Assembly: GCA_964347285.1 (NCBI GenBank)
Contig: CAYFYE010000002.1
Location: 11,075-75,074, forward strand
Direction of reading: 5' to 3'
Source of the DNA: an uncultured Acidimicrobiia bacterium
GTDB taxonomy: Bacteria > Actinomycetota > Acidimicrobiia > Spongiisociales > JAOTWH01
DNA: 64,000 nt
This document shows, one piece after another, positions 27,234 through 60,260 of this stretch; position 1 is the first letter of the stretch, and each line of letters opens with the position of its first letter. The position numbers and the translations under genes were made by a program. Below the pieces are notes generated by a model. That model was not told where the DNA came from and did not search any database. It saw nothing but the letters and a program-made list of their open reading frames with translations.

Positions 27234-27333
27234 GCGGCGATGCCTGGTCCATCGTCAGCCCCCCGGATGCCATATGGAAGGCCCCTTACTCCGCCCGCTT
27301 CCATGTTGGCGCCAGCGCTCCGGGGGGCTGACC

Positions 27334-28679: not shown

Positions 28680-28743
28680 GCGACCGGTCGAGCGCTGGCG
28701 ACCTGAGGAGTGGGGGCTTCTCGGCTCGTCCCGGCGGCTAGCT

Positions 28744-40064: not shown

Positions 40065-40861
40065 CCATCACCATGGACCCGCGTCTCCAACAGCGTCGCC
40101 GCCGGGTGGCCGAGCACGGGGCGCGCCGGCGGCTGCGGGCCATGGCATGGATGGCGATGATCCTGGTGGTCGTCGGCCTCGCAGTTTGGGTTTCGCAGTC
40201 GACGCTGCTCGACGTCGATGAAGTGACATCGAGCGGCATCGAGAATTCTGATGCATTGCGGCTGCTCGAGGAAGCGGGGATCTCACCAGGTACGCCGATC
40301 GTATCGGCTATTTGGCGGGCGGGCCGAGCGGAGCGGGCCATCGAGGAGGATCCGTGGGTCAGCGACGCCGCGGTGTCGGCTGTTTTGCCCGATAGGGTGG
40401 AACTGGTCGTGGTCGAGCGGCATCCGGCGGCGTGGGCGGAAGCCGATGACGGCTGGCTGCTGCTCGGGGGCGATGGCGTGGTGGTCGAGCAGGCGGCGGC
40501 CCCCCGGTCCGGCCTGGCGACGATCCGGCTTCCCGGGGTGACGGGTTCGGTGGGGGAGGCCGTGCAGCATGCCGAGGCCGCCGGCGTCCTCGAATTTGCC
40601 AACACCCTGGTCCCCGACGTGGCCGCCGATCTGGAAGTCGGGGTCCGGGACGGGGCCCTGTGGGCCGAGGCCGGCGCTCTCTCCGCGAAGCTGGGCCGGG
40701 CCCGGGAGATGACGGCCAAGGCCACGGCGTTCATGGCCTTCCTAGCCGAGGACGTGCCTGAGGGGTGGGCCGTCAATCTGGTCGCCCCGAGTCGGCCGGC
40801 CTTGTTCGAGCACGCATTGGGAGACGGGGCCGGGGGCGGGGAGCAGACGCCGGATCAGTAA
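40061..40861 (+). CDS. ftsQ: cell division protein FtsQ/DivIB
   Basis: ATG 40061 (ATGA overlap with murB); single TM then POTRA-like region; cluster position. Confidence 0.8.
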   Translation: MTITMDPRLQQRRRRVAEHGARRRLRAMAWMAMILVVVGLAVWVSQSTLLDVDEVTSSGIENSDALRLLEEAGISPGTPIVSAIWRAGRAERAIEEDPWVSDAAVSAVLPDRVELVVVERHPAAWAEADDGWLLLGGDGVVVEQAAAPRSGLATIRLPGVTGSVGEAVQHAEAAGVLEFANTLVPDVAADLEVGVRDGALWAEAGALSAKLGRAREMTAKATAFMAFLAEDVPEGWAVNLVAPSRPALFEHALGDGAGGGEQTPDQ

Positions 40862-40953
40862 AGTGAGGGTCGACCCTGGACTCTCAACCTGAAGTTGAAG
40901 GTGAGTCGGCCACGTTTTTTCGCGTTCTTGTATCGGGTAACCTGGCGGGCATC

Positions 40954-42012
40954 ATGACGAGTGAGCGAAGGACCCCGCAAACGTACCTAGCGGTGATCAA
41001 AGTAGTCGGCGTTGGTGGGGGAGGCGTCAATGCCGTCAACCGAATGCTCGACGCCGGAGTGGGTGGTGTGGAGTTCGTTGCCATCAACACCGATGCTCAG
41101 GCGTTGCTCATGTCCGACGCCGATATCAAGCTCGACATCGGCAGGGATCTGACTCGCGGCCTGGGCTCGGGGGCCGACCCCGAGCTGGGGCGCCAAGCCG
41201 CCGAGTCCCACCGCGCCGACATCGAGGACGCCCTCAAGGGTGCCGATATGGTGTTCATCACGGCCGGGGAGGGAGGCGGTACCGGTACCGGTGGTGCTCC
41301 GGTCGTGGCGGAAATCGCCCGGGAACTCGGAGCGCTGTCTGTTGGTGTGGTCACCCGCCCATTCGGTTTCGAGGGCCGTCGCCGTTCGGTGCAGGCCGAA
41401 CAGGGGATACAGGATCTCAAGCAGGCGGTCGACACCCTGATCATCATTCCCAACGATCGACTGCTGGAGGTGGCCGAGCCCAGCACGACGGTGGTCGAGG
41501 CTTTCCAGCTGGCCGACGAGGTGCTTACGAGCGGGGTCGCCGGCATCACCGGCATCATCACGACCCCTGGGTTGATCAATGTCGACTTCGCCGACGTCAA
41601 GGCGGTGATGCAGGGGGCCGGATCCGCGGTGATGGGTATCGGCCGCTCGACGGGGGAGCAGCGGGCCCAGCAGGCTGCCGACAAAGCCATCTCGAGTCCG
41701 CTGTTGGAGACATCGATGGAGGGTGCCACCGGTGTGCTCATGTCGGTGGCCGGTCCCACCGATTTGACCTTGCTCGAGGTGAATCAAGCCGCCGGGGCCA
41801 TCGCCGAACATTGCGATCCAGACGCCAATGTGATCTTCGGGGCCGTCATCGATGATGCGTTCGATGACGAGGTACGGGTGACGGTCATCGCCGCCGGATT
41901 CGAGGCGGGCCGTCCTTCCCGGCTGTGGAGCTATGAGGACCTGGAAGAGGAACCCGGCTTCGCACCGGGCCGGGAAGACGACCTCGACATTCCATCCTTC
42001 GTAGAAGGATGA
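40954..42012 (+). CDS. ftsZ: cell division GTPase FtsZ
   Basis: GGGGVNA, tubulin signature GGGTGTG, NTDAQAL. Confidence 0.95.
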
Positions 42013-42638
42013 TCCGCCCGCCCGGGTTCCGTGGGGCGGCCTTTGGCACCGCCCGAGACGGCGACGCCCGCGCCTCTGCCGAGGCTCGTGCTGCCATTTC
42101 CCGAGAGCTGGGCATCAGCTCGAAATGGGCCTTCGCTCGGCAGGTCCATGGAACCGATGTGTTGACGGCTCGGGGTCCGGGGTTGGCGGGAGAGGGTGAC
42201 GCCCTGATGACGAGCACACCGGGGTTGCCGCTGGTGGTGGGAACGGCCGACTGCGTCCCGGTGATCGTGGAGGGTCGGGCGGTCGTAGCGGTGATCCACG
42301 CCGGGTGGAGGGGTCTGGCGGCCGGCGTGATCGGCGCGACCCTCGACCACATGGCCCGATCGGGCGCGGAACCGGAACGGGCCGCCGTCGGGCCGGCCAT
42401 AGGACCATGTTGCTACGAGGTGGGAGAGGAAGTTCTGGCCGCCCTGGAGGGGTACGCCGTCACGACTCGCTCCGGCGCCCCGGGGGTGAATCTTTCGTCG
42501 GCGGCCGTAGCGCAGTTGGGGAGCCTGGCCGTGTGGAGGGATGAGCACTGCACCAGTTGTGGCGCCGGCTTCCACTCGTACCGGCGCACCGGAACGCCAT
42601 CGCGCCAGGTGGCGGTAGGTTGGTTGCCGAGCGCCTGA
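42009..42638 (+). CDS. pgeF: peptidoglycan editing factor PgeF (YfiH/laccase-domain family)
   Basis: ATGA overlap with ftsZ; QVHGTDV, TADCVPV, HAGWRG, C..H Zn-site motifs. Confidence 0.85.
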
Positions 42639-43285
42639 AGCAGGTACTGGAGCGGATCGGAGCGGCCGCGATCCGAGGCGGCCGAAACCCCGACGAGATC
42701 ACCCTGGTGGCGGTCACCAAAGGGCGATCCGTCGACCAGGTCCTCGAAGCCTATGGAGCCGGCCAGCGCCACTTCGGAGAGAATCGGGCCCAAGAGTTGG
42801 TGGCCAAGGCGCCGCTGCTTCCCTCCGACATCCACTGGCATTTCATCGGACCCCTACAGCGCAACAAGGTGGGGAAGGTCCGTCCGCTGACCGTGCTCCT
42901 GCACTCGCTGGACCGGATTTCCCTGGCCCAGAGCTGGGCCCGTGGTGGCGCCGCGCCGCCGGCTCTGCTGGAGGTCAATGTCGGGGGGGAGCCTCAAAAG
43001 CACGGCTTTCGTCCCCTAGAGGCCCGGGAAGCGGCCTCGATCTGTATCGATCTCGGCATCGATCTGTTGGGGGTGATGACGATGCCGCCCCAGGTGGCCA
43101 GCCCGGATCAGGCCCGGCCATGGTTCGAGGCCTTGGTGGGCGTGCGCGATCAGTTGGCCAAGGAGTGGCCCGAAGTCCGGGAGCTCTCGATGGGTATGAC
43201 CGACGATTTCGAGGTGGCCGTGGAGATGGGAGCCACACTCGTCCGCGTGGGACGGGCTATCTTTGGCGCCGCACGGGGAACGTGA
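42620..43285 (+). CDS. yggS: YggS-family PLP-binding (PLP homeostasis) protein
   Basis: TTG 42620 chosen by alignment to E. coli YggS N-terminus; AVTKGR (PLP-Lys), HFIGPLQRNK, SMGMTDD motifs. Confidence 0.85.
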   Translation: MVAERLKQVLERIGAAAIRGGRNPDEITLVAVTKGRSVDQVLEAYGAGQRHFGENRAQELVAKAPLLPSDIHWHFIGPLQRNKVGKVRPLTVLLHSLDRISLAQSWARGGAAPPALLEVNVGGEPQKHGFRPLEAREAASICIDLGIDLLGVMTMPPQVASPDQARPWFEALVGVRDQLAKEWPEVRELSMGMTDDFEVAVEMGATLVRVGRAIFGAARGT

Positions 43286-43318
43286 TGCCGGCGGGCCCTG
43301 GCCACGACGAACCGGAAG

Positions 43319-43912
43319 GTGAACATGGCATCACTCTGGCAGAAGACCCTCTACTACTTGGGGTTGGTCGACGAGGAAGAGGGGCCCGAAGCCGAGCCGG
43401 GGGACGGCGAGGTGCCGGCCAAAGCACCCCCGCCGCAAGCGCCGCCACGACGGACCGCGAAGAGTGTGCAGCACGTCGGAACACCCACCGGAACGATTCC
43501 CGGTCAGCGAGTCGAGCCGCCGCCCCGGTCCCGGCGGCGAATCGCTGCCGATCCGGCGTTGGCCGAGGCGGGTGTGTACATTTCCAACGAGAGCGAAGAG
43601 TCGGCGGTGCGCCCCACCTCGACGACCGCCGAGTCGGAGGTCATTTCCGCCAACAGCTTCTCGGATGCCCAATTACTCGCCGACCTGATTCGGGAGAGGA
43701 CTCCGGTGGTCCTCGATTTGCGGACGACCGAGCCGGAAATGGTGCGGCGGCTCGTGGACTTTGCCTCCGGTCTGACCTATGCCCTCGACGGCACGATGAG
43801 GCGGGTCGCACAAGGTGTGATATTGGTGACTCCGCCCCGGGTGACTGTGAGCCGCGACGAGCGGCGCCGCCTGGCCTCTCTCGGTCTCTACGAAGGCCGC
43901 GACCTGAGCTGA
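43319..43912 (+). CDS. sepF: cell division protein SepF
   Basis: N-terminal SLWQKTLYYLGLVDEEE, P-rich linker, conserved C-terminal SepF domain. Confidence 0.85.
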   Translation: MNMASLWQKTLYYLGLVDEEEGPEAEPGDGEVPAKAPPPQAPPRRTAKSVQHVGTPTGTIPGQRVEPPPRSRRRIAADPALAEAGVYISNESEESAVRPTSTTAESEVISANSFSDAQLLADLIRERTPVVLDLRTTEPEMVRRLVDFASGLTYALDGTMRRVAQGVILVTPPRVTVSRDERRRLASLGLYEGRDLS

Positions 43913-44186: not shown

Positions 44187-47100
44187 CTAGCCACCGGCCG
44201 GTGCCAGCTCGAGCAGCAGCCGCCTTCCCCCTATTTCGACGGTGCTCGCTTCGGGCCCGGTGCCTTCAGAGATTCGCTGAGCCAGGATCTCGGCTGCGAT
44301 GAACGCCTGGTGGCTCCGGATGGCGGCCGCCAGCGCATCATCATCGGTGGCCCAGCGCAGCTCGATGCGGTCGCTCACGGCCAGTCCGGCTTCCCTGCGC
44401 AGCGCTTGAGTGCGGTTGACGACCTCGCGGGCCAAGCCCTCGGAGATCAGCTCGTCCGAGAGGGCGCAATCGAGGACCACCACCAACGAGCCTTCCGCTG
44501 CAACGACCTGGCCCCGACGCGGGATCCTGGTCACCACCACATCGCCTCCGCTGATGGTTTCGCCCTCTACTTGGACGGCCCCTCCTTCGACGAGCCGATC
44601 GACGTCCTCGTCGCCCAGGGCGGCAATAGCGGCGGCCACTTGCTTCACCCGGGCGCCCAGGCGGGGTCCGAGCACCCTGAAGTCGGCCTTGGCGCTGAGG
44701 TGAACCAGATCCGCCTCGTGCTCGCCGAGGCGCACCTCCTTGACGTTGAGCTCTTCGCCGATGAGGTCGAGATGGCCGGCGATTGCGGCGCGGGACGCCG
44801 GGTCTCTGGTCACCACGGTCATGCTGGGAAGCGGCTGGCGGACCCGGATCCTCTCGGATACCCGCAGGCCCCGACCCAGATTGACCACCCGGCGGACGAC
44901 GGCCATTGACCGTTCGAGCTGGGCATCGATGAGTGCCGGGTCGGCTTCCGGATAGTCGGTGTGGTGGACGCTGTCGGGGCCATCACCGTCCTCCGGCCGC
45001 TGCCGGACCACGAGGTGGAGGAAGATCTCTTCGGTGACGAACGGAAGGAGGGGTGCCAGGACGCCGGCGAACGTCACCAGCACCTCGTACAGGGTGGCGA
45101 AGGCGGCCGTCTTGTCCCTGTCGTCGCCGGTCTTGGTGCGCCAGAACCGGCGGCGAGAACGGCGGATGTACCAATTGGTGAGGTCGTCGATGAAGGCCAG
45201 CATCGGCGGGACGACCGCATACAGGTAGTAGCCCTCCATCTGCTCGTTTACCCGTTTGATGAGGCTCTGGAGCACGGAAAGGATCCAGCGGTCCACTTCG
45301 GGCCGCTCTGCCGGGGGCGGGGCCGAGGCGAGGTCCTCGGGACCGATGCGGTCGGCCTCGGCATACGTCGTGAAGAACGAATAAGCGTTCCAAAGCGGAA
45401 GCATGACGGTGCGCACCACCTCACGCACACCCTTCTCCGAGAAACGCAGGGTCTCGGCCCGCATCACCGGTGAGTTGATCAGGAAGGCCCGCAAGGCATC
45501 GGCGCCGTTGCGGTTGATGACGTCGATCGGATCCTCGTAGTTCCTCAGGCTCTTCGACATCTTCCGCCCGTCCTCGGCCAGGATCAGCCCGTTGACCACG
45601 CAGTTGCGAAACGGCACCTCGTCGAACAACGCCGTTGCCAAGACCACCAGCGTGTAGAACCACCCGCGGGTCTGGTCGAGGCCCTCGGCGATGTAGTCGG
45701 CCGGAAACAGGGCGGCGAACTCCTCTCGGTTTTCGAAGGGGTAGTGCTGCTGGGCGTAAGGCATCGAGCCCGATTCAAACCAGCAATCCAACACCTCCGG
45801 TATCCGCCTCATCGTTCCGTCGCACCGGGTGCACGGGAAGGTGACCGGATCCACGAAGTGCTTGTGGAGGTCGGTCAGCCGGATCCCCGAGCGCTCTTCC
45901 AGCTCGTCGATCGAGCCGATGCAAACCGTCTCGTCGCACTCCTCACATTCCCATATCGGTATGCAGCTTCCCCAGTAACGGTTGCGACTGATGGCCCAAT
46001 CGCGGGCCTCCTCGAGCCAGTTGCCGAAGCGGCGGGTGCCCACGTAGCCGGGCACCCAGTGAATGGTCTTGTTCAGCTCGACCATGCGGTCCCGGAACGC
46101 CTCGACTCGGACGTACCAGGTGGGAATGGCCTTGTAGATGAGGGGCGTTTCGGTGCGCCAGCAGAACGGGTAGGAGTGGACCAATCGCTCGGAGCGCACC
46201 AGGAGATCGGCCTCGTCCAGCATCTCGACCAGTCGGGCGTCGGCGTCCTTGACGTTCTGGCCGGCTACGTCGGGGACGGCGTCGGTGAACCGACCCTCGG
46301 CATCGACCGGATCGAGCATCACGTCGAGGCCGGCGTCCTGGAGGGCGAAGAAGTCGGCCTCGCCGTAGGCCGGCGCCATGTGCACGAGGCCGGTTCCCTC
46401 TTCCGTGTTTACGTCGTCGGAGGCGATGATCCGAAATGCCCCCCGGTCGCGCTCTTCGGCGAAATACTCGAAAGGCGGCTGGTAGGCCACTCCCAGCAAC
46501 TCGGCGCCGGTGGCCTCATCTGTGATCAGGCCCCCATTCGTGAAATAGCGTTCCACTAGGTCGGCAGCGATCCAGTAGGTGCCCGGATGCCCGTCGATGG
46601 GGCCCTCGACCCGGGCGTACCGGACGTCTTCGGCGACTGCGATGGCCAGATTGCCCGGAAGTGTCCAGGGCGTCGTGGTCCAGATGAGCAGGTGGTCCCC
46701 GGGGCGGACCGGACCGGGGCCGGCGACGACCGGCAGCCGCACGGTGATCGATGGATCCTCGACGTCGCGGTAGTCAAGGTTGGCCTCGAAGTTGGACAGA
46801 GGGGTGGTGGCCCCCCACGAGTAGGGGACGACCTTGAAGTCCTTGTAGATCAGTCCCTTGTTCCACAACTGCTTGAACACCCACCACACCGATTCCATGA
46901 AGTCGACGTCCATGGTCTTGAAGTCGTTCTCGAAATCGACCCAACGGCCGATCCGGCGGGTGACCCTCTCCCAATTCTCGGTGTTGGCCTGGACACGGAG
47001 GCGGCACGCCTCGTTGAACCGATCCTCGCCGAAGGAGGCGATGGCGCTCGGACCGGACAGGCCGAGATCCTGCTGCACCTCCATCTCGATGGGCAGGCCG

Positions 47101-47375
47101 TGCGTGTCCCAGCCGAACCGGCGCTCGATGCGATAGCCGCGCATCGTCCAGTAGCGGGGGACGACGTCCTTGAGTACCCCGGCCAGCAGGTTTCCAAAGT
47201 GAGGACTTCCGGTTGGGAAGGGCGGGCCGTCGTAGAAGGTGTATTCCCGCCCCGGCGGACGCAGTTCCACCGACCGGGCAAAGGCGTCGATCTCGTCCCA
47301 GAACTCGAGGATGCGCTCTTCGAGCGCGGGAAAGTCGACGTCGGGAGCGACTCGACGAAACGGTGTACTGCTCAT
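44187..47375 (-). CDS. ileS: isoleucine--tRNA ligase
   Basis: 1062 aa; HIGH-class (PTGSPHFGN), KMSKS, Zn-finger C-x2-C motifs; actinobacterial/type-2 length. Confidence 0.95.
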   Translation of the reverse strand: MSSTPFRRVAPDVDFPALEERILEFWDEIDAFARSVELRPPGREYTFYDGPPFPTGSPHFGNLLAGVLKDVVPRYWTMRGYRIERRFGWDTHGLPIEMEVQQDLGLSGPSAIASFGEDRFNEACRLRVQANTENWERVTRRIGRWVDFENDFKTMDVDFMESVWWVFKQLWNKGLIYKDFKVVPYSWGATTPLSNFEANLDYRDVEDPSITVRLPVVAGPGPVRPGDHLLIWTTTPWTLPGNLAIAVAEDVRYARVEGPIDGHPGTYWIAADLVERYFTNGGLITDEATGAELLGVAYQPPFEYFAEERDRGAFRIIASDDVNTEEGTGLVHMAPAYGEADFFALQDAGLDVMLDPVDAEGRFTDAVPDVAGQNVKDADARLVEMLDEADLLVRSERLVHSYPFCWRTETPLIYKAIPTWYVRVEAFRDRMVELNKTIHWVPGYVGTRRFGNWLEEARDWAISRNRYWGSCIPIWECEECDETVCIGSIDELEERSGIRLTDLHKHFVDPVTFPCTRCDGTMRRIPEVLDCWFESGSMPYAQQHYPFENREEFAALFPADYIAEGLDQTRGWFYTLVVLATALFDEVPFRNCVVNGLILAEDGRKMSKSLRNYEDPIDVINRNGADALRAFLINSPVMRAETLRFSEKGVREVVRTVMLPLWNAYSFFTTYAEADRIGPEDLASAPPPAERPEVDRWILSVLQSLIKRVNEQMEGYYLYAVVPPMLAFIDDLTNWYIRRSRRRFWRTKTGDDRDKTAAFATLYEVLVTFAGVLAPLLPFVTEEIFLHLVVRQRPEDGDGPDSVHHTDYPEADPALIDAQLERSMAVVRRVVNLGRGLRVSERIRVRQPLPSMTVVTRDPASRAAIAGHLDLIGEELNVKEVRLGEHEADLVHLSAKADFRVLGPRLGARVKQVAAAIAALGDEDVDRLVEGGAVQVEGETISGGDVVVTRIPRRGQVVAAEGSLVVVLDCALSDELISEGLAREVVNRTQALRREAGLAVSDRIELRWATDDDALAAAIRSHQAFIAAEILAQRISEGTGPEASTVEIGGRRLLLELAPAGG

Positions 47376-50535: not shown

Positions 50536-51684
50536 CTAATACAGGAACATGGGCTTGCCGGGGACGTGGCGCACCTTGGGCCGATACTGCCGGACGTCGT
50601 AGAGCTCTTCGACATCGACGTGCTTGGCCCCCGCGCCGGTCACGGTGATGGGCACGTTCGTGTAGATGCCGCTGCGCAGTGAGACCATCCGCCCCGCCGA
50701 GCCCTCGACGGCCAGATCGGCCGCCATGACCGCATAGTTGGAAGCCACCATCAGATCGAGCGAGTCGGGACTCCCGGACCGCATGAGGTAGGCGAGCCGC
50801 TGATTGATGACGTTGACCCCGGTCAGCTCCTTGATCATCTCCCCGCAGATGACCCCGATGCCGCCCAGCTTGCGATGCCCAAAGGCGTCTTCCTCGCCCG
50901 AAAGGACCAGGTCTCCTCCCTCGATGACGGCGCCCTCGGAGATCGTCAGCATCGCATAGTTCGACGGGTTGGCCGCCCGGTCTTCCATGAGGAGGTCGGA
51001 CAGCCGCTTGATGTCCACGGGCACTTCCGAGATCACGGCTCGATCGACTCCGGCCAGGTAGGCGGTGACCAGGGAGGTCTCGCCGCTGTACCGGCCGAAC
51101 AGCTCGACGACTGCGATGCGCTCGTGGGACCCGGCGCTGGTCCGCAGGTTGTGGATGAACTCCACGCCGCGGGTGATGGCGGTGGAGAAGCCGATGCAGT
51201 AGTCGGTGCCGTGGACGTCGTTGTCCATGGTCTTGGGGATGCCCACGATCGGCACGCCCTCCTGGTGGAGGCGGAGCGCGTACGACAGGGTGTCGTCCCC
51301 ACCGATGGGGATCAGGACGTCGAGCTTCAGTGACTCGATGACCGCCAAAACGTGGTCGGTGAAGTCGAAGGGACCCTCTCCGGTCGCCTCGTCCGCCAGG
51401 AACTCGGGGACCTCGGCGGGGCGTACGTTGCTCGGGTTGGTGCGCGAAGTGTGAAGAACGGTCCCGCCGCTGCGATCGATCGTGCGCACCACTCCTTTGT
51501 CGAGAGGGACGATGTTGGCCGCAGCACTGTCCGGGTCGTCGAGGTTGGTGCTCAGCAGCCCGTCCCAGCCCCGGCGGATGCCGATGGTCTCGTGTTCGTC
51601 GTCGGTCACGCGGTACACCGCCGCCTTGATGCAGGCATTCAGGCCGGGCACGTCACCGCCTCCGGTGAGGATCCCGATGCGCAT
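50536..51684 (-). CDS. phosphofructokinase paralog with PPi-type signature (Asp104/Lys124 equivalents)
   Basis: ATG 51684 (aa 40 of ORF); GGDDT and PKTMDND motifs, 382 aa. Confidence 0.8.
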
Positions 51685-52604
51685 TAGCCGGCCGCCTCTT
51701 CGTATACGGCGTGGAAGCGGCGGTAGGCCTCGCCGATCTTGGCGGCCGCCGCCTCGCGTCCCAGGTCGCCCTTGACGAACTCGTCTATTCCCGGGCCCCA
51801 AATCGTCCTTCCTATGGCGAACCCGATATAGCCGTCGACCCCGGCTCCCATCTTCAGCCAGTGCTCGACGGCCCCATCATCGGCTCCCCGGCCGAGCACG
51901 ACCGCCTTGACATCGTCCCGGCCCCCACCTCGGATCAGCCCGGCCAGGAGTTCGCAGCTGCGGCTGCGGTCGAGGCCCTCGATCTTCCAGATGTCGGGTT
52001 CGATGCCGGCCGTCTGGATCTCGCTGATCGACTCCAGGGTGAGGGCGGGACGGAGCTCGGTGTCGTAGGCGGCGGCATCGCCTCCCACCAGCTCGAGCTG
52101 GCGGTCGCTGGCGGGCACCAACAGCTCGAAGAGGAACTTGCGGTCGTGCTGATGAAGCCAATCCGACAGGCGCTTGAGCCGTTCCGACTGGGCCGACTTG
52201 TCGGCAGGGTCGTCGTCCGGATTCCATCGCACCAGCACTTTGGCAAACGAGGGGTCGTACTTCTCGATGTGAGCCGCGAAGTCCTCTCCGAACTCGAAGT
52301 CGAAGACGTCTTGGCCCGACTTCTCCACGGGCATGGCCAGCGTGATGTCCAGCTCCTTGGCCCGGAAGGCGACGTCGGCTCCCATCTCTTCGTCGACCAG
52401 GATGCCGGCACCGGGAAGGGAGCCGTTTCCGGCTGCCGTCAGGAAACCCTCGAAGACGAGCATCTTGGCGTCGCGCAACCTCTCCTGATCCTCGGCTGAT
52501 GGTGTTCCTTCGATGCCGAAGCGCTTGCGAAAACTGCCCCGATGGTCGAACGCGAGGATGAAGAGCTTGCCCTGGTACCCGAGTTGCATGTCCCACTCCT
52601 TCAT
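51684..52604 (-). CDS. class I aldolase-fold protein (LacD/DUF2090-like)
   Basis: N-terminal [14 protein letters not shown] resembles LacD ISALAFDQRGAL region; TIM-barrel-like composition; 4-nt overlap (ATGA) with downstream PFK paralog. Confidence 0.5.
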
Positions 52605-52745
52605 CGAGTGCGGCGCCGAGGATACCGCCGTCGAGAGCGGCGACTGGGACCGGGCCCCTCAGATGATGGAGCCTCGACCCGAGGAGGGGGTGGGGGCCTG
52701 GTAGCCTCGAATTGCCCGACCGGGCACGGATGACTGTGGGGAACG

Positions 52746-52883
52746 GTGGAAGGCGAGGCCGAGCCGACCGAGGCCAGTGAGGAGGAGCATCCCAAGGGCA
52801 CGCTGGTGCTGCTCGTCGGCTTCATTCTCCTCATCGTCGTGCTCTGGCTGTGGACGTACGCCACCTTGCTGGTGCGGGCTTAG
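52746..52883 (+). CDS. cbaD: cytochrome ba3 oxidase subunit IIa (CbaD-like) small single-TM protein; not in supplied ORF track (sub-threshold length, most likely)
   Basis: Frame opened after TGA 52731-33; EEEHPKGTLVLLVGFILLIVVLWLWTYATLLVRA closely parallels Thermus CbaD MEEKPKGALAVILVLTLTILVFWLGVYAVFFARG (from memory); stop TAG 52881-83 is 2 nt before subunit II ATG; start codon uncertain (GTG 52746 or downstream). Confidence 0.55.
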   Translation: MEGEAEPTEASEEEHPKGTLVLLVGFILLIVVLWLWTYATLLVRA

Positions 52884-52885
52884 AC

Positions 52886-53359
52886 ATGGCCCTCAAGGTG
52901 GAGAGATACGAGCGGATCTTCCTCTACCTCACCGTGGTCGTGCTCGTCGCCGGCATCGTTGCGATCGTCCTCAGCGTCGCCGAGGCCAACATCCACCTCC
53001 CCTCGACCGAAGACCGGATCGATCCGCGCCGGGTCGAGGAGACGCCGCCATTCGACGACCCCGGCGTCTTCCAGGCCGGGCCCGACGAGTTTCAGGCGGT
53101 CGTCATCGCTCGGGCCTGGTCATTCGAACCGGCTGAAGTGCGGGTCCCGGCCGGGGCGGAGGTGGAATTCGTCATCACCTCGGCCGACGTCCTGCACGGG
53201 TTTCTGATCCTGGACACCTCGGTCAATGCGATGGTGATCCCCGGCCAGGTGACCAGGGTGACTACGACGTTCGACGAAGCCGGTGAGTACGAGATCGTGT
53301 GCCACGAGTACTGCGGGATCGGCCATCAAGGTATGTTCGGAAAGGTGGTGGCGGAATGA
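52886..53359 (+). CDS. cbaB: cytochrome ba3-type oxidase subunit II (CuA)
   Basis: Single TM then cupredoxin domain; CuA ligands H...CHEYCGIGHQGM; about 157 aa like Thermus CbaB. Confidence 0.85.
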   Translation: MALKVERYERIFLYLTVVVLVAGIVAIVLSVAEANIHLPSTEDRIDPRRVEETPPFDDPGVFQAGPDEFQAVVIARAWSFEPAEVRVPAGAEVEFVITSADVLHGFLILDTSVNAMVIPGQVTRVTTTFDEAGEYEIVCHEYCGIGHQGMFGKVVAE

Positions 53360-55020
53360 CGTCGGCCGCCCCGGCGGCATCGTCTGTCCTGGACACGCTC
53401 GACGTCGACCAGCGGAAGTGGATTCGCCGGCAGCTCTACCTCGCCTTCGCCGGACTGGCGGTGGGCGTGCTGATGGGGCTGCTCCAGGTGCTGGAACGTC
53501 TCAACATAGACCTGTACGACGAGGTCCAGCTACAGAGCTACTACCAGGGCCTCACCATGCACGGCGTGGCGACGGCCATCGTGTTCACGTTTACGTTCTC
53601 CAATGCGTTCCTGGCGCTCGCCACGGCTCGGGGACTGGGCCGGCCCCTCGCCTCCACCAACCTCGTCATCGGTTCGTTCGTCACGGCGGCCCTGGGCCTG
53701 GTGCTGGCACTGGCGGCGATGGTGACCAACTCGGCCACCGTCCTCTACACGTTCTACGCCCCCTTGGAAGCCAGTTCGCTGTTCTATCTGGGGGCGGTGC
53801 TGTTGGTGGTGTCGACGTGGCTGGTCTCGGTCAATCAGCTGCTCACCCTCCGGGCCTGGCGGCGCCAGCATCCCGGTGAGCGAATCCCGCTCCTGGCTTT
53901 CACGTCGATCGTCACCTATTTGATGTGGGATCTGGCTTCGGTGGGAATCGCCGTCGAGGTGGTGGTCTTCCTGTTGCCGTGGGCCCTGGGCTGGGTGGCG
54001 GGCACCGATCCCTTGCTGACCAGGACCCTGTTCTGGTTCACCGGCCATCCGATCGTCTACTTCTGGCTGCTGCCCGCCTACGTGAGCTGGTACATGATGG
54101 TGCCCCGGCGGGCCGGAGGGAAGCTGTACAGCGACGCCATCGTGAGAGCGGTCTTCATCATGTTCCTCTTGCTCTCCACGCCGGTCGGCCTGCACCACCA
54201 GTTCACCGACCCGGGCGTGGACAGCGGCTTGAAGTTCGTGCACGCCATCCTCACCTTCGCCGTCTTTTTCCCGTCCATGGTCACCGCCTTCACCCTCCTC
54301 GCCGCATTCGAGAACGGGGGCCGGGCCCGGGGGGGCAAGGGATTGTTCGGCTGGATCCGCAAGCTTCCTTGGCGGGAGCCCTTCGTCGCCCCACAGCTGC
54401 TGGCCATGCTGGCCTTCACGGTGGGAGGGGCTACCGGGCTCATCAACGCCAGCTTTACCGTCAATCTCGTGGTCCACAACACCGCGTACATACCGGGCCA
54501 CCTCCATCTGACCGTCGGCACGGCGGTGGCCCTGTCGTTCATGGGCATCTCCTACTGGCTGGTGCCTCACCTCACCGGTCGGCGGCTGTTCTCCGATGGG
54601 ATGGCCGTTCTCCAGGCCTGGCTCTATTTCGCGGGGGTGCTGTTGATGTCCCGGGGTCTGATGGGTGCCGGCCTCGAAGGGCAGCCCCGGCGGGTGCCCG
54701 CCAACTCCATTCCCTACCGCCAGGAGGGCTGGTCGACGTTCGATGCGCTCACCGGCCTCGGGGGCGTGCTCATGGTGATCAGCGCCGCCCTGTTCTTCTG
54801 GAACATCATCGCTACGGTGCGCAACCGGGAGCCGGCCCAGGGTGAGGAGCTCACGTTCTCCCTCAGCGAGACCATTCACGGTGCCGACGTGGCTCCTCCA
54901 GCGTTGGATCGCCTCGGCGTGTGGGTCCTGGCGGCGGTCGCCCTGGTGCTCGTTGCCTATCTGCCGGCGCTGGTCACCCAAGGCATCGATCTGAGCTCGC
55001 CCGGCTTCTCCCTGTTCTGA
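53356..55020 (+). CDS. cbaA: cytochrome ba3-type (B-family) oxidase subunit I
   Basis: ATGA overlap with cbaB; 554 aa 13-TM; heme/CuB His motifs (WFTGHP, HHQF, HNTAYIPGHLHL). Confidence 0.9.
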   Translation: MTSAAPAASSVLDTLDVDQRKWIRRQLYLAFAGLAVGVLMGLLQVLERLNIDLYDEVQLQSYYQGLTMHGVATAIVFTFTFSNAFLALATARGLGRPLASTNLVIGSFVTAALGLVLALAAMVTNSATVLYTFYAPLEASSLFYLGAVLLVVSTWLVSVNQLLTLRAWRRQHPGERIPLLAFTSIVTYLMWDLASVGIAVEVVVFLLPWALGWVAGTDPLLTRTLFWFTGHPIVYFWLLPAYVSWYMMVPRRAGGKLYSDAIVRAVFIMFLLLSTPVGLHHQFTDPGVDSGLKFVHAILTFAVFFPSMVTAFTLLAAFENGGRARGGKGLFGWIRKLPWREPFVAPQLLAMLAFTVGGATGLINASFTVNLVVHNTAYIPGHLHLTVGTAVALSFMGISYWLVPHLTGRRLFSDGMAVLQAWLYFAGVLLMSRGLMGAGLEGQPRRVPANSIPYRQEGWSTFDALTGLGGVLMVISAALFFWNIIATVRNREPAQGEELTFSLSETIHGADVAPPALDRLGVWVLAAVALVLVAYLPALVTQGIDLSSPGFSLF

Positions 55021-55802
55021 TGAAAAGGGGAACAACTGCGCTGGTGTTGGCCCTCGTGGCGGTGCTCTCTGGGGCCTCGCCCGCCGCCGGTCAGGACGGG
55101 GAGGAGGTCTACCGGACGAACTGTGCCGGCTGTCACGGCCCCGATGGAGAGGGAGCGGAGGGAGTGTTCCCGCCCTTGGCCGGCAATGAGCGTATCCAGG
55201 ATTCCTCCTATGTGGGCCGGGTGCTGGCAGAGGGCCTGGCCGGCGAGCTCGAGGTAGATGGCGTCACCTACGACGGACAGATGCCGGCGTTCCCCACCCT
55301 GGGCCCGGCCGAGGTCGATGCGGTCATCGCCTACATCCAGGGTTTCGAAGCGGCGGTACCGGCCACCACCGCCGCTCAGGCCATCGTCGTCGATGGCGTC
55401 GGGGACGCTGCCCGGGGCCGAAATTTGTTCGAGGGCCGGGACGGATTGGTCAACGGGGGACCGGCGTGCGTCGCCTGTCATACCGCCGGCGACGTCGGCA
55501 ACCCGGCCGGGGGAGGCTTTGGGGGAGACCTCACCGACGCCTTCGAGCGTCTCGGCAGCGACGCGCTGGCGGCCGCAATCGTCCAGCCGGCGGGGGGCTC
55601 GATGGAGACGCTGTACGGGCCCGACCCGGCGACGCCCCAGGAGGTGGCCGACCTGGTGGCCTTCCTCGGAGGAGCAGCCACCCAGGGGCGAGGGCTCGAC
55701 GCAATCGTGCTGATCGGATTGATCGGACTCGGGGTCGCCCTTGCTGCCACCGCCTTCGCGCTGAAACCGCCACGGACTGAATCGGTGGGAGCAGAGCGAT
55801 GA
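55020..55802 (+). CDS. membrane-anchored diheme cytochrome c
   Basis: Signal peptide; two CxxCH (CAGCHG, CVACHT); C-terminal TM IVLIGLIGLGVALAATAFAL; start overlaps cbaA stop (TGATG). Confidence 0.8.
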   Translation: MKRGTTALVLALVAVLSGASPAAGQDGEEVYRTNCAGCHGPDGEGAEGVFPPLAGNERIQDSSYVGRVLAEGLAGELEVDGVTYDGQMPAFPTLGPAEVDAVIAYIQGFEAAVPATTAAQAIVVDGVGDAARGRNLFEGRDGLVNGGPACVACHTAGDVGNPAGGGFGGDLTDAFERLGSDALAAAIVQPAGGSMETLYGPDPATPQEVADLVAFLGGAATQGRGLDAIVLIGLIGLGVALAATAFALKPPRTESVGAER

Positions 55803-56692
55803 CCGGCGACGAGCTCCTCTACGGGGCCCTGCCCGGCGCGGCGATGATCGTCGCCTTGGTCACCTTGTTGTGGCGGCTGTTCGTCTCGGAGCAACCGCTG
55901 ACGGAGCGAATCCCGCCCGGCGACGACCGGGCGGCGCGGTGGGGATGGTTCTCGGTGCGATGGGGGCTGGGGCTGGCGCTGGCCACCCATCTGGTGGCGC
56001 TGGTGGTTCCCCGGAGCATCGCCGGGTGGAATGCCGTCGAGGCCCGCTTGTATCTCCTCGAAGGCACCGGCCTGGCCATAGGACTGTGGGCCGCAGTGGG
56101 CATCGTCATCCTCGGGGTGCGCTTCGTTCGGGGCCGGGCATCGAAACCGTCCTGGGCCGACTCAGTCGTGGTGGGCCTGGTGGTCGTCGTCGTGTTTTCC
56201 GGGATCGTCATCGCCGTCTTCCACCGCTTCGGATCGTTCTGGGGGGTCGAGGTGATGGTGCCCTACCTCTTTTCGCTGGCAGGTGGCGAACCCCGCCCCG
56301 AGCTGGTCGCCGACCTGCCGGTGGCGGCGAGGATCCACCTACTGGCCGGCTTCGCCCTGGTGGCGGTGTTCCCGTTGTCGCGGTGGCTGGCCGTGCCCGC
56401 TTCCTACGTGGTCGGGGCGTGGCAGATGCTGGCCGGGCCGATCCCGGCCGAAATCCCCCCCGAGGGTCGACGGGGAGGCGATCGTCTCGGCTGGGCGGCG
56501 GCCTGGGTGCGGGGGATCGCCATCGTGGCCTACTTCATCGTGGCCACGGTGTGGCTGCCCTCGTTGGTGTTCGATCGCATGGCCGACGCTCCCCAGTGGG
56601 CCCGCGATGTTGCCGGGTCAGGAGTGTGGCTGGTGGCGGTCGCGATCGGGGTGGCCCTGCTGAGGCGGTTGCAGCAGGCCGCCGAGATCTGA
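55799..56692 (+). CDS. hypothetical polytopic membrane protein (possible heme-b or oxidase-assembly subunit)
   Basis: ATGA overlap with cytochrome c gene; 6-7 TM, conserved His in helices (HLVALVVP, RIHLLAGF). Confidence 0.5.
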   Translation: MTGDELLYGALPGAAMIVALVTLLWRLFVSEQPLTERIPPGDDRAARWGWFSVRWGLGLALATHLVALVVPRSIAGWNAVEARLYLLEGTGLAIGLWAAVGIVILGVRFVRGRASKPSWADSVVVGLVVVVVFSGIVIAVFHRFGSFWGVEVMVPYLFSLAGGEPRPELVADLPVAARIHLLAGFALVAVFPLSRWLAVPASYVVGAWQMLAGPIPAEIPPEGRRGGDRLGWAAAWVRGIAIVAYFIVATVWLPSLVFDRMADAPQWARDVAGSGVWLVAVAIGVALLRRLQQAAEI

Positions 56693-56735: not shown

Positions 56736-59700
56736 TTGACCGTACGGAGGACCGTGGCCGACACCTTCGCCCACCTGCACCTGCATACCGAGTTCTCGAT
56801 GCTCGACGGAGCGGCCCGGGTCCGGGATGTCGTGGCCGCCGCCGCGGCCGATGGTCAGCCGGCGGTGGCCATCACCGATCACGGCGTCCTCTACGGAGCC
56901 GTCGACTTCTATCAGGCGGCAGTAGCCGCGGGGGTGAAGCCGATCATCGGCATCGAGGCCTATGTGACTCCCGGATCGCGCTACGACCGTCCGCCTCGGC
57001 GCGACGACATCCGCTATCACGTGACGTTGCTGGCCGAGAACGACGCCGGCTACCGCAACCTCATCGCCCTCGCCTCCCGCGGCTATCTCGACGGCTTCTA
57101 CTACAAGCCCCGCATCGACCTCGAGCTGCTCGCCGAGCATGCCGAGGGCCTCATCGGCACGTCGGGCTGCTTGGGAGGGCCGGTGGCCCAGCACCTGGCT
57201 CCGGACGCCTCCCGCGAGGAGGGCAACGTCGGGGGCGAACCCGACTACCGGGCCGCCCTCGAGGCGGCGGCGACCTACCAGGACATCCTCGGCAAGGACT
57301 CCTTCTTCATAGAGATCCAGGATCACGGTCTCGAGCCGCAGCGGCGCATCATGGGCGACCTCCTCTCTATCTCTGCCGAGATCGGCGCCCCCCTGCTGGC
57401 AACCAACGACTGCCACTACACCCAGGCCGACGAGGCCGAGGCCCACGACGTGTTGTTGTGCATTCAGACCGGAACGACGATGGACGACCAGGACCGTTTC
57501 CGGTTCGACGCCCAGGAGTTCTACCTGAAGAGCGCCGCCCAGATGAGGGCTCTCTTCCCCGACGACCAGTACCCGGGCGCCTGCGACAACACGCTCCTCG
57601 TGGCGGAGCGAGCCCAGGTGGAGCTGGAGTTCGGGCAGATCTTGCTTCCCCATTTTCCCGTGCCGGAGGGAGAGACCGAGGCCAGTTACCTGCGCCGCCT
57701 CGTCTACGAGGGGGCCGAGGCCCGCTACGGGGATCCGGCTCCGGAGGCGGTCGTCGAGCGCATCGAGCACGAGCTGGCGGTCATCGAGGAGATGGGCTTC
57801 CCGGCCTACTTCCTGGTGGTGTGGGATCTCATCCGCTACGCCAGGAGCCGCAACATCCGGACCGGACCGGGGCGGGGCAGTGCTCCGGGAGCGATCGTCT
57901 CCTACTGCCTGGGCATCACCGGCCTCGATCCGCTCCAGTACGGGCTCATCTTCGAGCGCTTCCTCAATCCGGGCCGAAGACAGATGCCCGACATCGACAT
58001 GGACTTCGACGAGCGCTATCGGGGCGAGATGATCCGGTACTGCGCCGAGCGCTACGGCACCGATCACGTCGCCCAGATCGTGACCTTCTCGACGATCAAG
58101 GGGCGCCAGTCGGTGCGCGACGCGGCCCGGGTGCTCGGCTATCCCTACGGGCTGGGCGATCGAATCGCCAAGCTGATGCCGCCCCCGATTCTGGGCATAG
58201 AGGCGTCACTGACCCAATGCCTGGAGGCCCCCGGCGCCGACGCCGAACCGGCCGTCAAAGACTTCTACTCCAACGCCGCCGGGCTACGGGAGCTCTACGC
58301 CACCGATCCCGATGCGGCGCGGGTCATCGACACGGCGCGGGGGCTCGAAGGCCTGCGGCGCCAGGACTCCATCCATGCGGCAGCCGTGGTCATCTCCCCC
58401 AAGCCCCTCATCGAGATCGTTCCCGTGCAGCGCAAGGGCGACGGCGGTGAGGTCGTCACCCAGTACGAGATGCACGCCATCGAGGATCTCGGCCTCCTCA
58501 AGATGGACTTCCTGGGATTGCGCAACCTGTCGACGATCGAGAGGGCGCTAGAGCTCATCGCGGCCAATCGAGGGCAACAGGTGGACATCGACGCCGTCGA
58601 CCTCGACGACGAGGCCGTGTACGAAATGCTGCAGCACGGCGACTCGATGGGAGTGTTCCAGCTGGAGGGTCCGGCGATGCGCTCCCTGATGCGCAACCTG
58701 CGCCCCGACCGGTTCACGGACCTGGTCGCTCTGGTGGCCCTGTATCGGCCCGGGCCTCTGGGCGCCGGCATGCATACCGAGTACGCCGACCGCAAGAACG
58801 GCCGCACCGAGGTCGACTACCTCCACCCCGACCTCGAGGAGATCCTTGCCGACACCTACGGGATCATGGTGTTCCAGGAGCAGGTCATGCAGGTGGCCCA
58901 GAAGATGGCCGGCTTCTCGATGGCGGAGGCCGACGATCTCCGCAAGGCCATGGGCAAGAAGATTCCTGAAGTCATGGCTGCTCAGGAGGACAAGTTCGTT
59001 CGCGGCTGTGCCGCTCGGGGGTACGCAGAGCAATTGGGCCGCGAGCTCTTCGGGTTCATCGAGCACTTCGCCGGCTACGGTTTCAACAAGCCCCATTCGG
59101 CCGCGTACGCGCTCGTCGCCTACCAGACCGCGTGGCTCAAGGCCCATTACCCCGCCGAGTACATGGCGGCGCTGCTCACGGCGGTCAAGCGCGACAAGGA
59201 CCGCACCGCCCTCTATCTGAACGAATGTCGGACCATGGGGGTGAGGGTCCTGGCGCCCGACGTCAACCGCTCCGAGACGGATTTCACGGCCGACGACGAG
59301 GCCATCACCTTCGGCCTGAGCGCCATCCGCAACGTGGGGGAGGGCGTCGTCGAGCTGATTCTCCAGGAGCGCAGCAAGAATGGCCCCTTTGCCGACTTCG
59401 GGGATTTCGTCAATCGGGTCGACGTTGCCGTCCTCAACCGGCGGACGATCGAGTCCCTGATCAAAGCCGGGGCGTTCGACGGCCTGGGCCATACCCGTCG
59501 CGGCCTCACCGAGACGTTCGAGGCGATGCTCGATGCAGTCCTGGCCCGCCGGCGAGCCGAAGAGATGGGCCAGTATTCGCTCTTCGGTGAGGACGAGGCC
59601 GCCGTGCAGAACGGTGTCGTCGAGATCCCCGAGATCTCCTGGGACCGCAAGATCCGACTCGGCTTCGAGAAGGAGATGCTGGGCCTTTATGTGAGCGACC

Positions 59701-60260
59701 ACCCGCTCTTCGGGGTCAACGACGTGCTGCAGTCGATGGCCACCACCACAATGGCCGGATTGTGGGAGCTCGAGGACGGCGCCACGGTCAAAGTGGGCGG
59801 CATCGTGGGCCCGATCATGCGCCGCTACACCCGGAACGGCGAACCGATGCTGTTCTTCCAGCTGGAGGATCTGGACGGCTCCGCCGAGGTGGTGTGCTTC
59901 CCAAGGGTGGTGGTCGAGTCCGGACCGCTGATCCGTGAGGACGCCGTGCTGCTGGTGGGCGGTCGCCTGGATCACCGGGGCGATTCGGTCAAGCTGGTTG
60001 CCGACGAGATCCGAGAGCCCGATCTCGGTTCGGAGGCCACGGTGCGGCTCCGCGTCCCGGCGACGAGGCTGTCGCGGGCCATGGTCGATAGCCTCAAGAC
60101 GGCGCTCGCCAACCATCCCGGCCGGGCGGCGGTGATCCTGCACATGACCGGAGAGCAGGGCGAGAAGGTGATCCGCTTGGGCGACGAGTTCCGGGTCGAG
60201 CCCCGCAGTGCCCTCTACGCCGAGCTCCGCGAGTTGCTGGGACCGTCGGCAGTGGTCTGA
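56736..60260 (+). CDS. dnaE: DNA polymerase III alpha subunit
   Basis: N-terminal PHP FAHLHLHTEFSMLDGA, polymerase core, OB-fold; 1174 aa; start TTG 56736 or GTG 56751. Confidence 0.95.
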   Translation: MTVRRTVADTFAHLHLHTEFSMLDGAARVRDVVAAAAADGQPAVAITDHGVLYGAVDFYQAAVAAGVKPIIGIEAYVTPGSRYDRPPRRDDIRYHVTLLAENDAGYRNLIALASRGYLDGFYYKPRIDLELLAEHAEGLIGTSGCLGGPVAQHLAPDASREEGNVGGEPDYRAALEAAATYQDILGKDSFFIEIQDHGLEPQRRIMGDLLSISAEIGAPLLATNDCHYTQADEAEAHDVLLCIQTGTTMDDQDRFRFDAQEFYLKSAAQMRALFPDDQYPGACDNTLLVAERAQVELEFGQILLPHFPVPEGETEASYLRRLVYEGAEARYGDPAPEAVVERIEHELAVIEEMGFPAYFLVVWDLIRYARSRNIRTGPGRGSAPGAIVSYCLGITGLDPLQYGLIFERFLNPGRRQMPDIDMDFDERYRGEMIRYCAERYGTDHVAQIVTFSTIKGRQSVRDAARVLGYPYGLGDRIAKLMPPPILGIEASLTQCLEAPGADAEPAVKDFYSNAAGLRELYATDPDAARVIDTARGLEGLRRQDSIHAAAVVISPKPLIEIVPVQRKGDGGEVVTQYEMHAIEDLGLLKMDFLGLRNLSTIERALELIAANRGQQVDIDAVDLDDEAVYEMLQHGDSMGVFQLEGPAMRSLMRNLRPDRFTDLVALVALYRPGPLGAGMHTEYADRKNGRTEVDYLHPDLEEILADTYGIMVFQEQVMQVAQKMAGFSMAEADDLRKAMGKKIPEVMAAQEDKFVRGCAARGYAEQLGRELFGFIEHFAGYGFNKPHSAAYALVAYQTAWLKAHYPAEYMAALLTAVKRDKDRTALYLNECRTMGVRVLAPDVNRSETDFTADDEAITFGLSAIRNVGEGVVELILQERSKNGPFADFGDFVNRVDVAVLNRRTIESLIKAGAFDGLGHTRRGLTETFEAMLDAVLARRRAEEMGQYSLFGEDEAAVQNGVVEIPEISWDRKIRLGFEKEMLGLYVSDHPLFGVNDVLQSMATTTMAGLWELEDGATVKVGGIVGPIMRRYTRNGEPMLFFQLEDLDGSAEVVCFPRVVVESGPLIREDAVLLVGGRLDHRGDSVKLVADEIREPDLGSEATVRLRVPATRLSRAMVDSLKTALANHPGRAAVILHMTGEQGEKVIRLGDEFRVEPRSALYAELRELLGPSAVV

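Follow-up and report, generated by a model that had tools for sequence, protein, structure and literature searches.

A 64-kb stretch of DNA from an uncultured Acidimicrobiia bacterium (contig CAYFYE010000002.1; here referred to as the window) carries the genes of a heme-copper oxidase on its plus strand, and the locus raises three questions: which family the oxidase belongs to, whether a small open reading frame (ORF) ahead of the subunit II gene encodes a third subunit, and where the operon ends. We read the plus-strand segment 52746-56692 as one five-gene respiratory operon, in which a B-family oxidase (cbaDBA) is joined by a recruited pair of NarC-like and NarI-like proteins, and we give this reading a probability of about 0.88. 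Its genes are as follows.

52746..52883, plus strand: cbaD, oxidase subunit IIa, 45 amino acids (aa), GTG start.
52886..53359, plus strand: cbaB, oxidase subunit II, 157 aa, a CuA protein with one transmembrane (TM) helix and Pfam COX2 and Cupredoxin_1 domains.
53356..55020, plus strand: cbaA, oxidase subunit I, 554 aa, Pfam COX1 (E 5e-89).
55020..55802, plus strand: NarC-like diheme cytochrome c, 260 aa, two Pfam Cytochrom_C domains.
55799..56692, plus strand: NarI-like membrane protein, 297 aa, Pfam Nitrate_red_gam (E 7e-23), the last gene of the operon.

The original prediction for this DNA, made from the letters alone, closed the operon with cbaA at 55020, and that boundary has to be moved. 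Each of the four junctions is either a 2-nt gap or an overlap of 1 to 4 nt. The stop codon of the 45-codon ORF lies two nucleotides (ac) before the cbaB ATG at 52886, just as had been described; cbaB and cbaA (start ATG at 53356) share an ATGA overlap; the cbaA stop and the NarC-like start overlap by 1 nt (TGATG); and the NarC-like stop and NarI-like start again form an ATGA. Judged by these junctions, the NarC-like and NarI-like genes are translationally coupled to cbaA and the operon reaches 56692. Directly 3' of the NarI-like gene, dnaE begins at 56736.

The oxidase had been assigned to the ba3-type B family rather than to the aa3 CtaCDE type, with the placement of subunit I relative to the A family proposed as a check. 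We searched subunit I against all PDB sequences. The ba3 oxidases of Thermus thermophilus (450 bits, E 1e-133) and Aquifex aeolicus (355 bits) far outscored all A-family chains, including the mycobacterial and corynebacterial aa3 enzymes, which reached at most 65 bits, and no C-family subunit I was in the match list at E <= 1e-3. Scores against the NCBIfam aa3 and CtaD models were hundreds of bits below the cutoffs. When mapped onto Thermus ba3 by alignment (47.9% identity over 514 columns), subunit I keeps the low-spin heme ligands H69 and H384, the high-spin heme ligand H382, the CuB ligands H231, H280, and H281, and the cross-link tyrosine Y235. Its GHPIVY motif has I233 at the position of the A-family D-channel glutamate (GHPEVY), and all five K-path residues (Y242, Y246, S259, S307, and T310) are kept; the combination of K-path residues with no D-channel glutamate is the criterion for a B-family subunit I used in PMC3128077.

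Subunit II agrees with this assignment. It matches the Thermus ba3 subunit II at E 3e-35 and A-family subunits II at E 3e-9 or weaker. Its coordinates and anatomy are those originally described, namely, a protein of about 157 aa with a single predicted TM helix (residues 11-29) and a CuA site (H104...C139-x3-C143-x3-H147-x2-M150), followed by a 554-aa subunit I. At the entrance of the K path, E9 takes the position of Thermus II-Glu15. On the evidence of both proteins, the oxidase is a B-family (ba3-type) heme-copper oxidase and not an actinobacterial aa3 CtaCDE enzyme. Because heme types (b, a3, o3) are not encoded in an apoprotein sequence, we use "ba3" as a family label only. By homology, electrons would pass from cytochrome c to CuA, to the low-spin heme, to the high-spin heme/CuB center, and on to O2, and protons would be taken up through a single K-path-type channel with no D-channel glutamate. 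The NCBI pipeline labels B-family subunit I homologues "cbb3-type cytochrome c oxidase subunit I," which is the wrong family.

The resemblance to the Thermus ba3 oxidase (CbaD-CbaB-CbaA; PDB 1EHK and 1XME) is close: both operons run in the order IIa, II, I; at 48% identity, subunit I shares every metal ligand with Thermus, along with the His-Tyr pair, the GHPIVY motif, and the residues of the K path; subunit II is likewise a one-helix protein with the CuA ligands; and the spacing from Gly to Trp in IIa is 16 in both. Three differences stand beside these likenesses. The window IIa is 45 aa long, with an acidic N-terminal tail that adds about 11 residues relative to Thermus and is typical of non-Thermus homologues. 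A membrane-anchored diheme cytochrome is encoded with the oxidase, unlike the soluble cytochrome c552 of Thermus. Finally, subunit I has an asparagine (Asn370, window 54463-54465) at the position of Thermus Asp372, a residue that has been discussed as part of the proton-loading region. We considered Asn370 as a lineage-specific proton-loading change and rejected it using related loci. A scan of one genome per species gave more than 560 loci with subunit I relatives, and we took the best 80; asparagine is common to all 80, and Thermus is the odd one out in the set.

We next consider the 45-codon ORF. It runs from a GTG at 52746, the sole canonical start in its frame, to a TAG at 52881-52883, and the frame opens after a TGA at 52731-52733. 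The predicted peptide begins with an acidic tail (residues 1-15), which is followed by the motif P16-K17-G18-T19 and a TM helix spanning about residues 18-36; it also contains a conserved tryptophan, W34. Short ORFs are frequent in this 67% GC DNA, with 61 ORFs of 25 aa or more overlapping the surrounding 6 kb. Length alone therefore does not set the frame beyond chance, and we turned to further tests of coding and conservation.

An untranslated chance frame in GC-rich DNA, leaving a two-subunit oxidase, would be in keeping with the abundance of short ORFs in the region and with the modest start signals, since the GTG is preceded by a weak, closely spaced Shine-Dalgarno-like sequence (GGGGA at 52738-52742). 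It would also fit the score against the Pfam CoxIIa model (PF08113), which is 19.9 bits for the full peptide and 20.5 bits when trimmed and so falls just short of the gathering cutoff of 20.7. That model was built mainly on Thermus-like sequences, and only 12 of 42 IIa homologues reach E < 0.01 with it; we therefore regard the score as a limit of sensitivity and not as evidence against homology. Codon-position GC content is of the coding type: at third and second positions (GC3 and GC2), IIa has 0.89 and 0.37, compared with 0.85 and 0.39 for subunit II and 0.88 and 0.46 for subunit I. A phmmer search of the PDB with the peptide found Thermus IIa (1xme_C, E 0.0012), aligned without gaps over 32 columns with 14 identities. 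The parallel to Thermus CbaD that had been drawn for the C-terminal part of the peptide holds to this extent, although the string in question has 34 residues and not 33.

Conservation separates the two possibilities more sharply. We ran an iterated hidden Markov model (HMM), seeded with the window peptide, over 14,514 stop-to-stop segments from both strands of the 80 loci. It placed an IIa-like ORF directly upstream of subunit II, on the same strand, in 79 of them, the 80th having no upstream DNA; each locus had one such place, and there was no off-target match among the segments. The loci span at least eight phyla. In about 74 of the 79, the IIa stop falls between -4 and +16 nt relative to the subunit II start, and the homologues have plausible lengths (35-55 aa) and good Shine-Dalgarno sequences before their starts. 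Conservation of the ORF in orthologous operons, which had been suggested as a check, is thus nearly universal in this set. Across 42 diverse IIa sequences with the consensus PxGTL...W, conservation reaches at least 90% at Gly18 and Trp34 (numbered as in the window peptide), and the profile of these 42 sequences, run against 177,635 PDB sequences, has as its top three matches exactly the solved IIa chains (two Thermus constructs and Aquifex 7DEG_C). The start and the acidic tail are both supported by an orthologue in locus L166, which is also 45 aa long and has an ATG at the position of GTG 52746.

These results conform to a published rule. Prunetti et al. (2011; PMC3128077) described IIa as a general feature of bacterial B-type oxidases with a one-helix subunit II and defined it as a small ORF directly upstream of such a subunit, with one TM helix, a P-X(1-3)-G-T/A motif, and a conserved Gly and Trp. 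The window peptide has the position, orientation, TM helix, motif, Gly, and Trp of this definition, as expected for the IIa of A. aeolicus ba3 (PDB 7DEG) and other bacterial B-type oxidases, and its subunit II, with one TM helix, presents the condition under which IIa is expected. Given the conserved position, strand, length class, and motif, the coding-type base composition, and the PDB matches, we consider a chance ORF extremely improbable, and we conclude from these sequence comparisons that the 45-codon ORF is the genuine subunit IIa of the oxidase. By analogy with the Thermus and Aquifex structures, its helix would lie against that of subunit II, at the site taken by the first helix in an A-family subunit II, and would stabilize the complex. 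In a sister sample (L169, 1392-3678), IIa and its upstream sequence are identical to those of the window while subunit I is only 83% identical; L169 could be a mosaic of strains or a chimeric assembly.

Two side statements of the original prediction were less durable. A three-subunit ba3 oxidase had been called uncommon in high-GC actinobacteria, yet 12 of the best 80 species-level loci belong to Acidimicrobiia, Actinomycetota, or Nitriliruptoraceae, and the actinobacterial holders of the operon include an isolate, Salinilacustrithrix flava. At E <= 1e-30, subunit I has more than 4,000 matches among database proteins. The operon is common in Acidimicrobiia, and the statement holds only against model actinobacteria. 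In the PMC3128077 survey, the sole actinobacterial entry (Nocardioides) has a two-helix subunit II and no IIa; in contrast, the window and its Acidimicrobiia relatives combine a one-helix subunit II with IIa and bring this form into the Actinomycetota.

Gene callers had also been said to miss IIa routinely, which is overstated. The ORF is indeed absent from the ORF track that accompanied the sequence, but only through the 60-aa threshold of that track, and the 45-aa gene was called on the identical public contig (L001; pooled metagenome assembly, Gulf of Cambay marine sediment, GCA_012974985.1). In the 2011 survey (PMC3128077), 6 of 27 IIa genes were unannotated. When we reconstructed exact IIa peptides from the loci, 9 of 10 tested were already in public protein collections, mostly as "hypothetical protein"; the usual fault is this name, and the correct one was found only for Sphaerobacter (NCBI) and Chloroflexus aggregans (UniProt). 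A word-indexed protein search with the 45-aa peptide returned only the self match.

The fourth gene encodes a cytochrome with a signal-like N terminus, two heme motifs (C35-AG-C-H and C150-VA-C-H), and a C-terminal TM anchor (residues 228-246). Over both heme domains, it is 47% identical (E 2e-48) to NarC, the product of the first gene of the T. thermophilus JL-18 narCGHJI operon, and it has the same C-terminal anchor. Its match to NCBIfam QcrC is weak (32.8 bits; cutoff, 200). Unlike in Thermus NarCGHI, the gene follows cbaA, and narG, narH, and narJ were not found within the window; we therefore call it NarC-like and not NarC. Thermus NarC is a membrane-bound periplasmic diheme cytochrome that binds NarI and has been proposed to take over from complex III by delivering electrons to acceptors in the periplasm (PMC7694296). 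NarC genes are not confined to Thermus. Of 80 fetched loci, about 30 hold a metagenomic narGHJI operon with a NarC homologue (E 1e-16 to 1e-57) just before narG (L090, L099-L103, L111, L112, L116, L117, L119-L121, L128-L137, L145-L149, L154, L157, L159, L162, and L163), and Thermus-type narCGHJI operons are frequent in environmental metagenomes.

The N-terminal heme domain of the NarC-like protein has Thermus cytochrome c552 (2fwl_A, E 1e-12) as its best PDB match. Cytochrome c552 is the natural donor of ba3. This resemblance supports a donor role for the NarC-like cytochrome, and we think it fairly probable that the protein, tethered on the outer membrane face, would pass electrons directly to CuA. 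A similar solution is known from the actinobacterial bc1-aa3 supercomplex (QcrCAB-CtaCDEF), in which the diheme QcrC is a built-in electron bridge. Both systems have a membrane-anchored diheme cytochrome c in place of a soluble carrier in a Gram-positive-type envelope. They differ in that the window oxidase is of the B family, its cytochrome is a NarC homologue, and no bc genes are adjacent.

The NarI-like protein (GC3, 0.88) has seven predicted TM helices, made up of the five-helix NarI fold and a two-helix C-terminal extension that Thermus NarI lacks. It is 37% identical to the NarI encoded by Thermus narCGHJIK, its profile matches Escherichia coli NarI (1q16_C) at E 8e-23, and its AlphaFold model (mean predicted local distance difference test score, 85.8) matches only NarI chains in the PDB, with TM-scores of 0.73-0.75. 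The NCBIfam narI score is 23.2 bits, short of the cutoff of 105.6. The NarC-like and NarI-like genes stand side by side, which we count as a further likeness to Thermus NarC and NarI, and the NarI-like protein would be the membrane partner of the NarC-like cytochrome.

The heme ligands of this protein set it apart from true NarI. Thermus NarI contains exactly four histidines, matching E. coli H56 and H205 (proximal heme) and H66 and H187 (distal heme). Of these four, the window protein has only the distal pair, H64 and H180, both of which are invariant in a 40-sequence NarI alignment; an Arg and a gap occupy the proximal positions. His142 was considered as a substitute ligand and rejected, as it is not conserved in the clade. 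A neighbor-joining tree built from 75 NarI sequences groups the seven ba3-linked members (here called NarI', with NarC' for the ba3-linked NarC-like proteins) in an exclusive clade, and the ligand counts in nar-operon NarI and NarI' are as follows.

Proximal heme, helix II (E. coli H56): 68/68 in nar-operon NarI, 0/7 in NarI'.
Proximal heme, helix V (E. coli H205): 66/68 in nar-operon NarI, 0/7 in NarI'.
Distal heme, helix II (E. coli H66): 68/68 in nar-operon NarI, 5/7 in NarI'.
Distal heme, helix V (E. coli H187): 68/68 in nar-operon NarI, 7/7 in NarI'.

From this pattern we infer that the NarI-like protein has lost the cytoplasm-side heme that would wire it to NarGH and that it no longer serves nitrate reduction. 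Full-length relatives of the NarI-like protein are very few: an exhaustive search of 1.84 billion representatives found six at E <= 1e-30, and a word-indexed protein search with it returned only the self match. Beyond these, the closest sequences (35-44% identity) are NarI proteins from narGHJI operons, and many such operons start with a NarC homologue. Gene order suggests that narC' and narI' are paralogues of Thermus-type nitrate reductase cytochromes that would have been recruited to the oxidase.

Two further observations concern this gene. A 167-nt difference between the window and L001 could have marked a pseudogene or a strain variant, and both were ruled out: the difference is a run of N in L001, and a sister assembly (L084) matches the window. 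The run (L001 8920-8995; window 56275-56517) interrupts the NarI-like gene, which is why the gene was not called on L001; a spurious opposite-strand ORF was called there instead. Four-His NarI proteins with the same two-helix extension occur in L083 (2-6288) and L113, in the arrangement narGHJ-narI-GltD-like-cytochrome b-Rieske-cytochrome c, so that the extension may go with the GltD-like neighbor rather than with ba3.

The order cbaD-cbaB-cbaA-narC'-narI' recurs in L002, L165, L166, and L168, the closest relatives of the window subunit I (68-73% identity), and a cytochrome c-NarI' pair is present on two fragmentary contigs (L082 and the P0155 contig), with cbaDBA off-contig or not identified. 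In three related loci, the operon continues past narI' (L165 6708-10179, L166 6834-11683, and L170 11675-17407) as a complex III plus complex IV super-operon. The added genes encode a GltD-like flavoprotein of about 600 aa (Fer4_20, Pyr_redox_2, and two [4Fe-4S] clusters), a split cytochrome b (about 240 and 178 aa), a Rieske protein, and a 152-aa monoheme cytochrome c. By tblastn, no gene for a GltD-like flavoprotein, Rieske protein, or cytochrome b was found in the 64-kb window, which has none of the genes added to the operon in these loci.

Several points weigh against reading the locus as an oxidase operon with a recruited pair. Gene order in a single clade is what connects ba3 with NarC'/NarI', and in L166 and L168/L170 that order runs on as cbaDBA-narC'-narI'-GltD-like-cytochrome b-Rieske-cytochrome c. 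Because the relatives' operon encodes a Rieske/cytochrome b complex, NarC' may simply bridge that complex and the oxidase. One distal ligand of NarI' is replaced in L002 (Tyr) and in L168 (Asn). The IIa score is 0.8 bits under the curated Pfam cutoff, and with a peptide of this length the E-values stay near 1e-3. No ctaA or ctaB homologue (heme A or heme O synthase) was found among the window proteins scanned. More generally, the enzyme is known here from its genes, so that "ba3" is a label and expression, assembly, and activity are predictions.

What the pair does is a separate matter. In one proposal, NarI' and NarC' together would act as a menaquinol:cytochrome c oxidoreductase, with menaquinol oxidized at an outer-face quinone site next to the distal heme b and electrons passing through the two c hemes to CuA, bypassing the Rieske/cytochrome b complex. 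The selective loss of cytoplasm-side ligands would fit this proposal, as would the retention of the outer-face pair in the window protein (H64 and H180) and in 5 of the 7 members, the invariance of these residues in the 40-sequence alignment, the intact NarI fold, and the lack of bc genes after the NarI-like gene in the window operon. A precedent exists in Thermus, in which the nitrate reductase that contains NarC takes the place of complex III when the cells denitrify (PMC7694296). The proposal is weakened by the clade itself: the loss of one distal ligand from 2 of the 7 NarI' proteins argues against an essential heme b, and the bypass is less necessary in relatives whose operon itself includes the genes of a complete Rieske/cytochrome b complex. 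We therefore hold the oxidoreductase role to be tentative and rather doubtful, and the same doubt attaches to its fuller form, a bc-independent menaquinol oxidase in which a B-family oxidase would be wired to a single-heme NarI' and NarC' that arose by narC/narI duplication in sediment Acidimicrobiia.

The super-operons suggest a different role, in which NarC' would be a membrane-tethered shuttle from a Rieske/cytochrome b complex, encoded elsewhere in the window genome, to the oxidase, and NarI' would be a redox-inert, or nearly inert, docking or assembly partner. NarC' would then be a counterpart of the diheme QcrC of actinobacterial bc1-aa3 supercomplexes. Apart from the gene order in L166 and L168/L170, the erosion of the NarI' heme ligands speaks for this role, the proximal pair being absent from all seven proteins and one distal ligand from two. 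Actinobacteria generally lack a soluble cytochrome c, which a tethered shuttle would replace. The Thermus NarC and NarI proteins bind to one another, and assembly depends on them (PMC7694296). The lack of bc genes in the window, the relatives' own monoheme cytochrome c, and the strict retention of the distal His pair in the window NarI-like protein all count against a shuttle with an inert partner, and we place its chances somewhat below even. We nevertheless favor docking and shuttling over quinol oxidation, because two clade members have lost a distal ligand and because the relatives' operons run into bc genes.

Two relatives connect this oxidase clade to nitrogen oxides. In L170 (1-9070, minus strand), a genuine narC-narG-narH operon adjoins the ba3-narC'-narI' operon in divergent orientation, an arrangement that fits an origin of NarC' and NarI' by duplication; a divergent Rrf2-family regulator and two major facilitator superfamily transporters are also present in this neighborhood. 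In L165 (267-4248), a cd1 nitrite reductase, an Rrf2 regulator, and a NiFe hydrogenase lie near the ba3 operon. These neighborhoods suggest a link between the oxidase clade and nitrogen-oxide respiration in L170 and L165, one that is absent from the window. It could be argued that the oxidase functions mainly in nitrogen-oxide metabolism, in nitric oxide (NO) reduction or as a sink coregulated with denitrification, and is not a dedicated O2 reductase. The accessory genes do derive from nitrate reductase, the operon of relatives is flanked by narCGH, an Rrf2-family regulator, or a cd1 nitrite reductase, and Thermus ba3 reportedly has low NO-reductase activity. The active site, however, shows the complete range of O2-reductase features, with the three histidines of CuB, the cross-link Tyr, the K path, and a CuA subunit, and no denitrification genes or Rrf2 regulator were found near the operon in the window. 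We regard a mainly nitrogen-oxide role as very unlikely.

The operon is preceded by the following two features.

51684-52604, minus strand: DUF2090 gene, the divergent neighbor of the oxidase operon.
52605..52745, no strand assigned: upstream intergenic region between the DUF2090 gene and the operon, the presumed promoter and leader.

A sigma-70 promoter scan upstream of the operon gave no consensus match. A terminator scan gave three terminator-like matches, all within coding sequence and at chance level, and an Rfam search of the window gave no match. The intergenic region contains a 10-nt GC-rich inverted repeat (52649-52658 and 52693-52702; 90% complementary, 34-nt spacer), which could be a regulator site or could be due to chance.

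The surroundings are those of a core chromosome. The window contains housekeeping genes (fabD/fabH/fabF, the dcw cluster, sepF, ileS, and dnaE) at a uniform GC content of 0.66-0.70, and the operon lies between an lspA/phosphofructokinase region and dnaE; apart from it, the housekeeping genes follow the order usual in actinobacteria. A horizontal-transfer island was ruled out by the uniform GC content and by housekeeping flanks in typical actinobacterial order, and on the same grounds we place the operon in the core chromosome. The actinobacterial genomes assembled in the Gulf of Cambay study are Microtrichales of 66-67% GC, a value shared by the window, which may hint at a kinship. The dcw cluster (27274-43912) is complete, with mraW, ftsI, murE, murF, ftsW, murC, murB, ftsZ, a YggS-like gene, and sepF; the fab, ileS, and dnaE stretches are at 8793-13089, 44187-47375, and 56736-60260. 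At E <= 1e-5, Pfam gave no match for several long ORFs whose GC3 is of the coding type (23455-25587, 25837-26625, 13407-14339, and 34238-35218 on the minus strand and 7930-8802 on the plus strand), one of which is 710 aa long. Part of this set may consist of wrong-strand shadows; at 34238-35218, for instance, one would expect mraY/murD on the plus strand.

The oxidase and its IIa follow the B-family/IIa rule generalized in 2011 by Prunetti et al. (PMC3128077) and are of an already known kind. The only part with some novelty would be the NarC/NarI-derived pair attached to the oxidase, whose function is predicted. The literature searched, with limited coverage that is no proof of novelty, held nothing relevant on a ba3 oxidase with a NarC/NarI pair or on a NarI-like protein with an oxidase.

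For the family, the rule that a one-helix subunit II implies an upstream IIa is confirmed in Actinomycetota and across about 80 species-level lineages. There is a practical value for annotation, as most IIa peptides are stored as "hypothetical protein" and the Pfam model misses about 70% of them, and the "cbb3-type" naming of subunit I misleads metabolic reconstructions of sediment metagenome-assembled genomes. B-family oxidases are reportedly high-affinity, low-O2 enzymes, and the operon therefore bears on the respiration of marine-sediment Acidimicrobiia at oxic-anoxic interfaces. If NarC' and NarI' do feed the oxidase, they would be a clear case of a respiratory module re-used between nitrate and oxygen respiration, and the loss of one heme would mark the change of partner.

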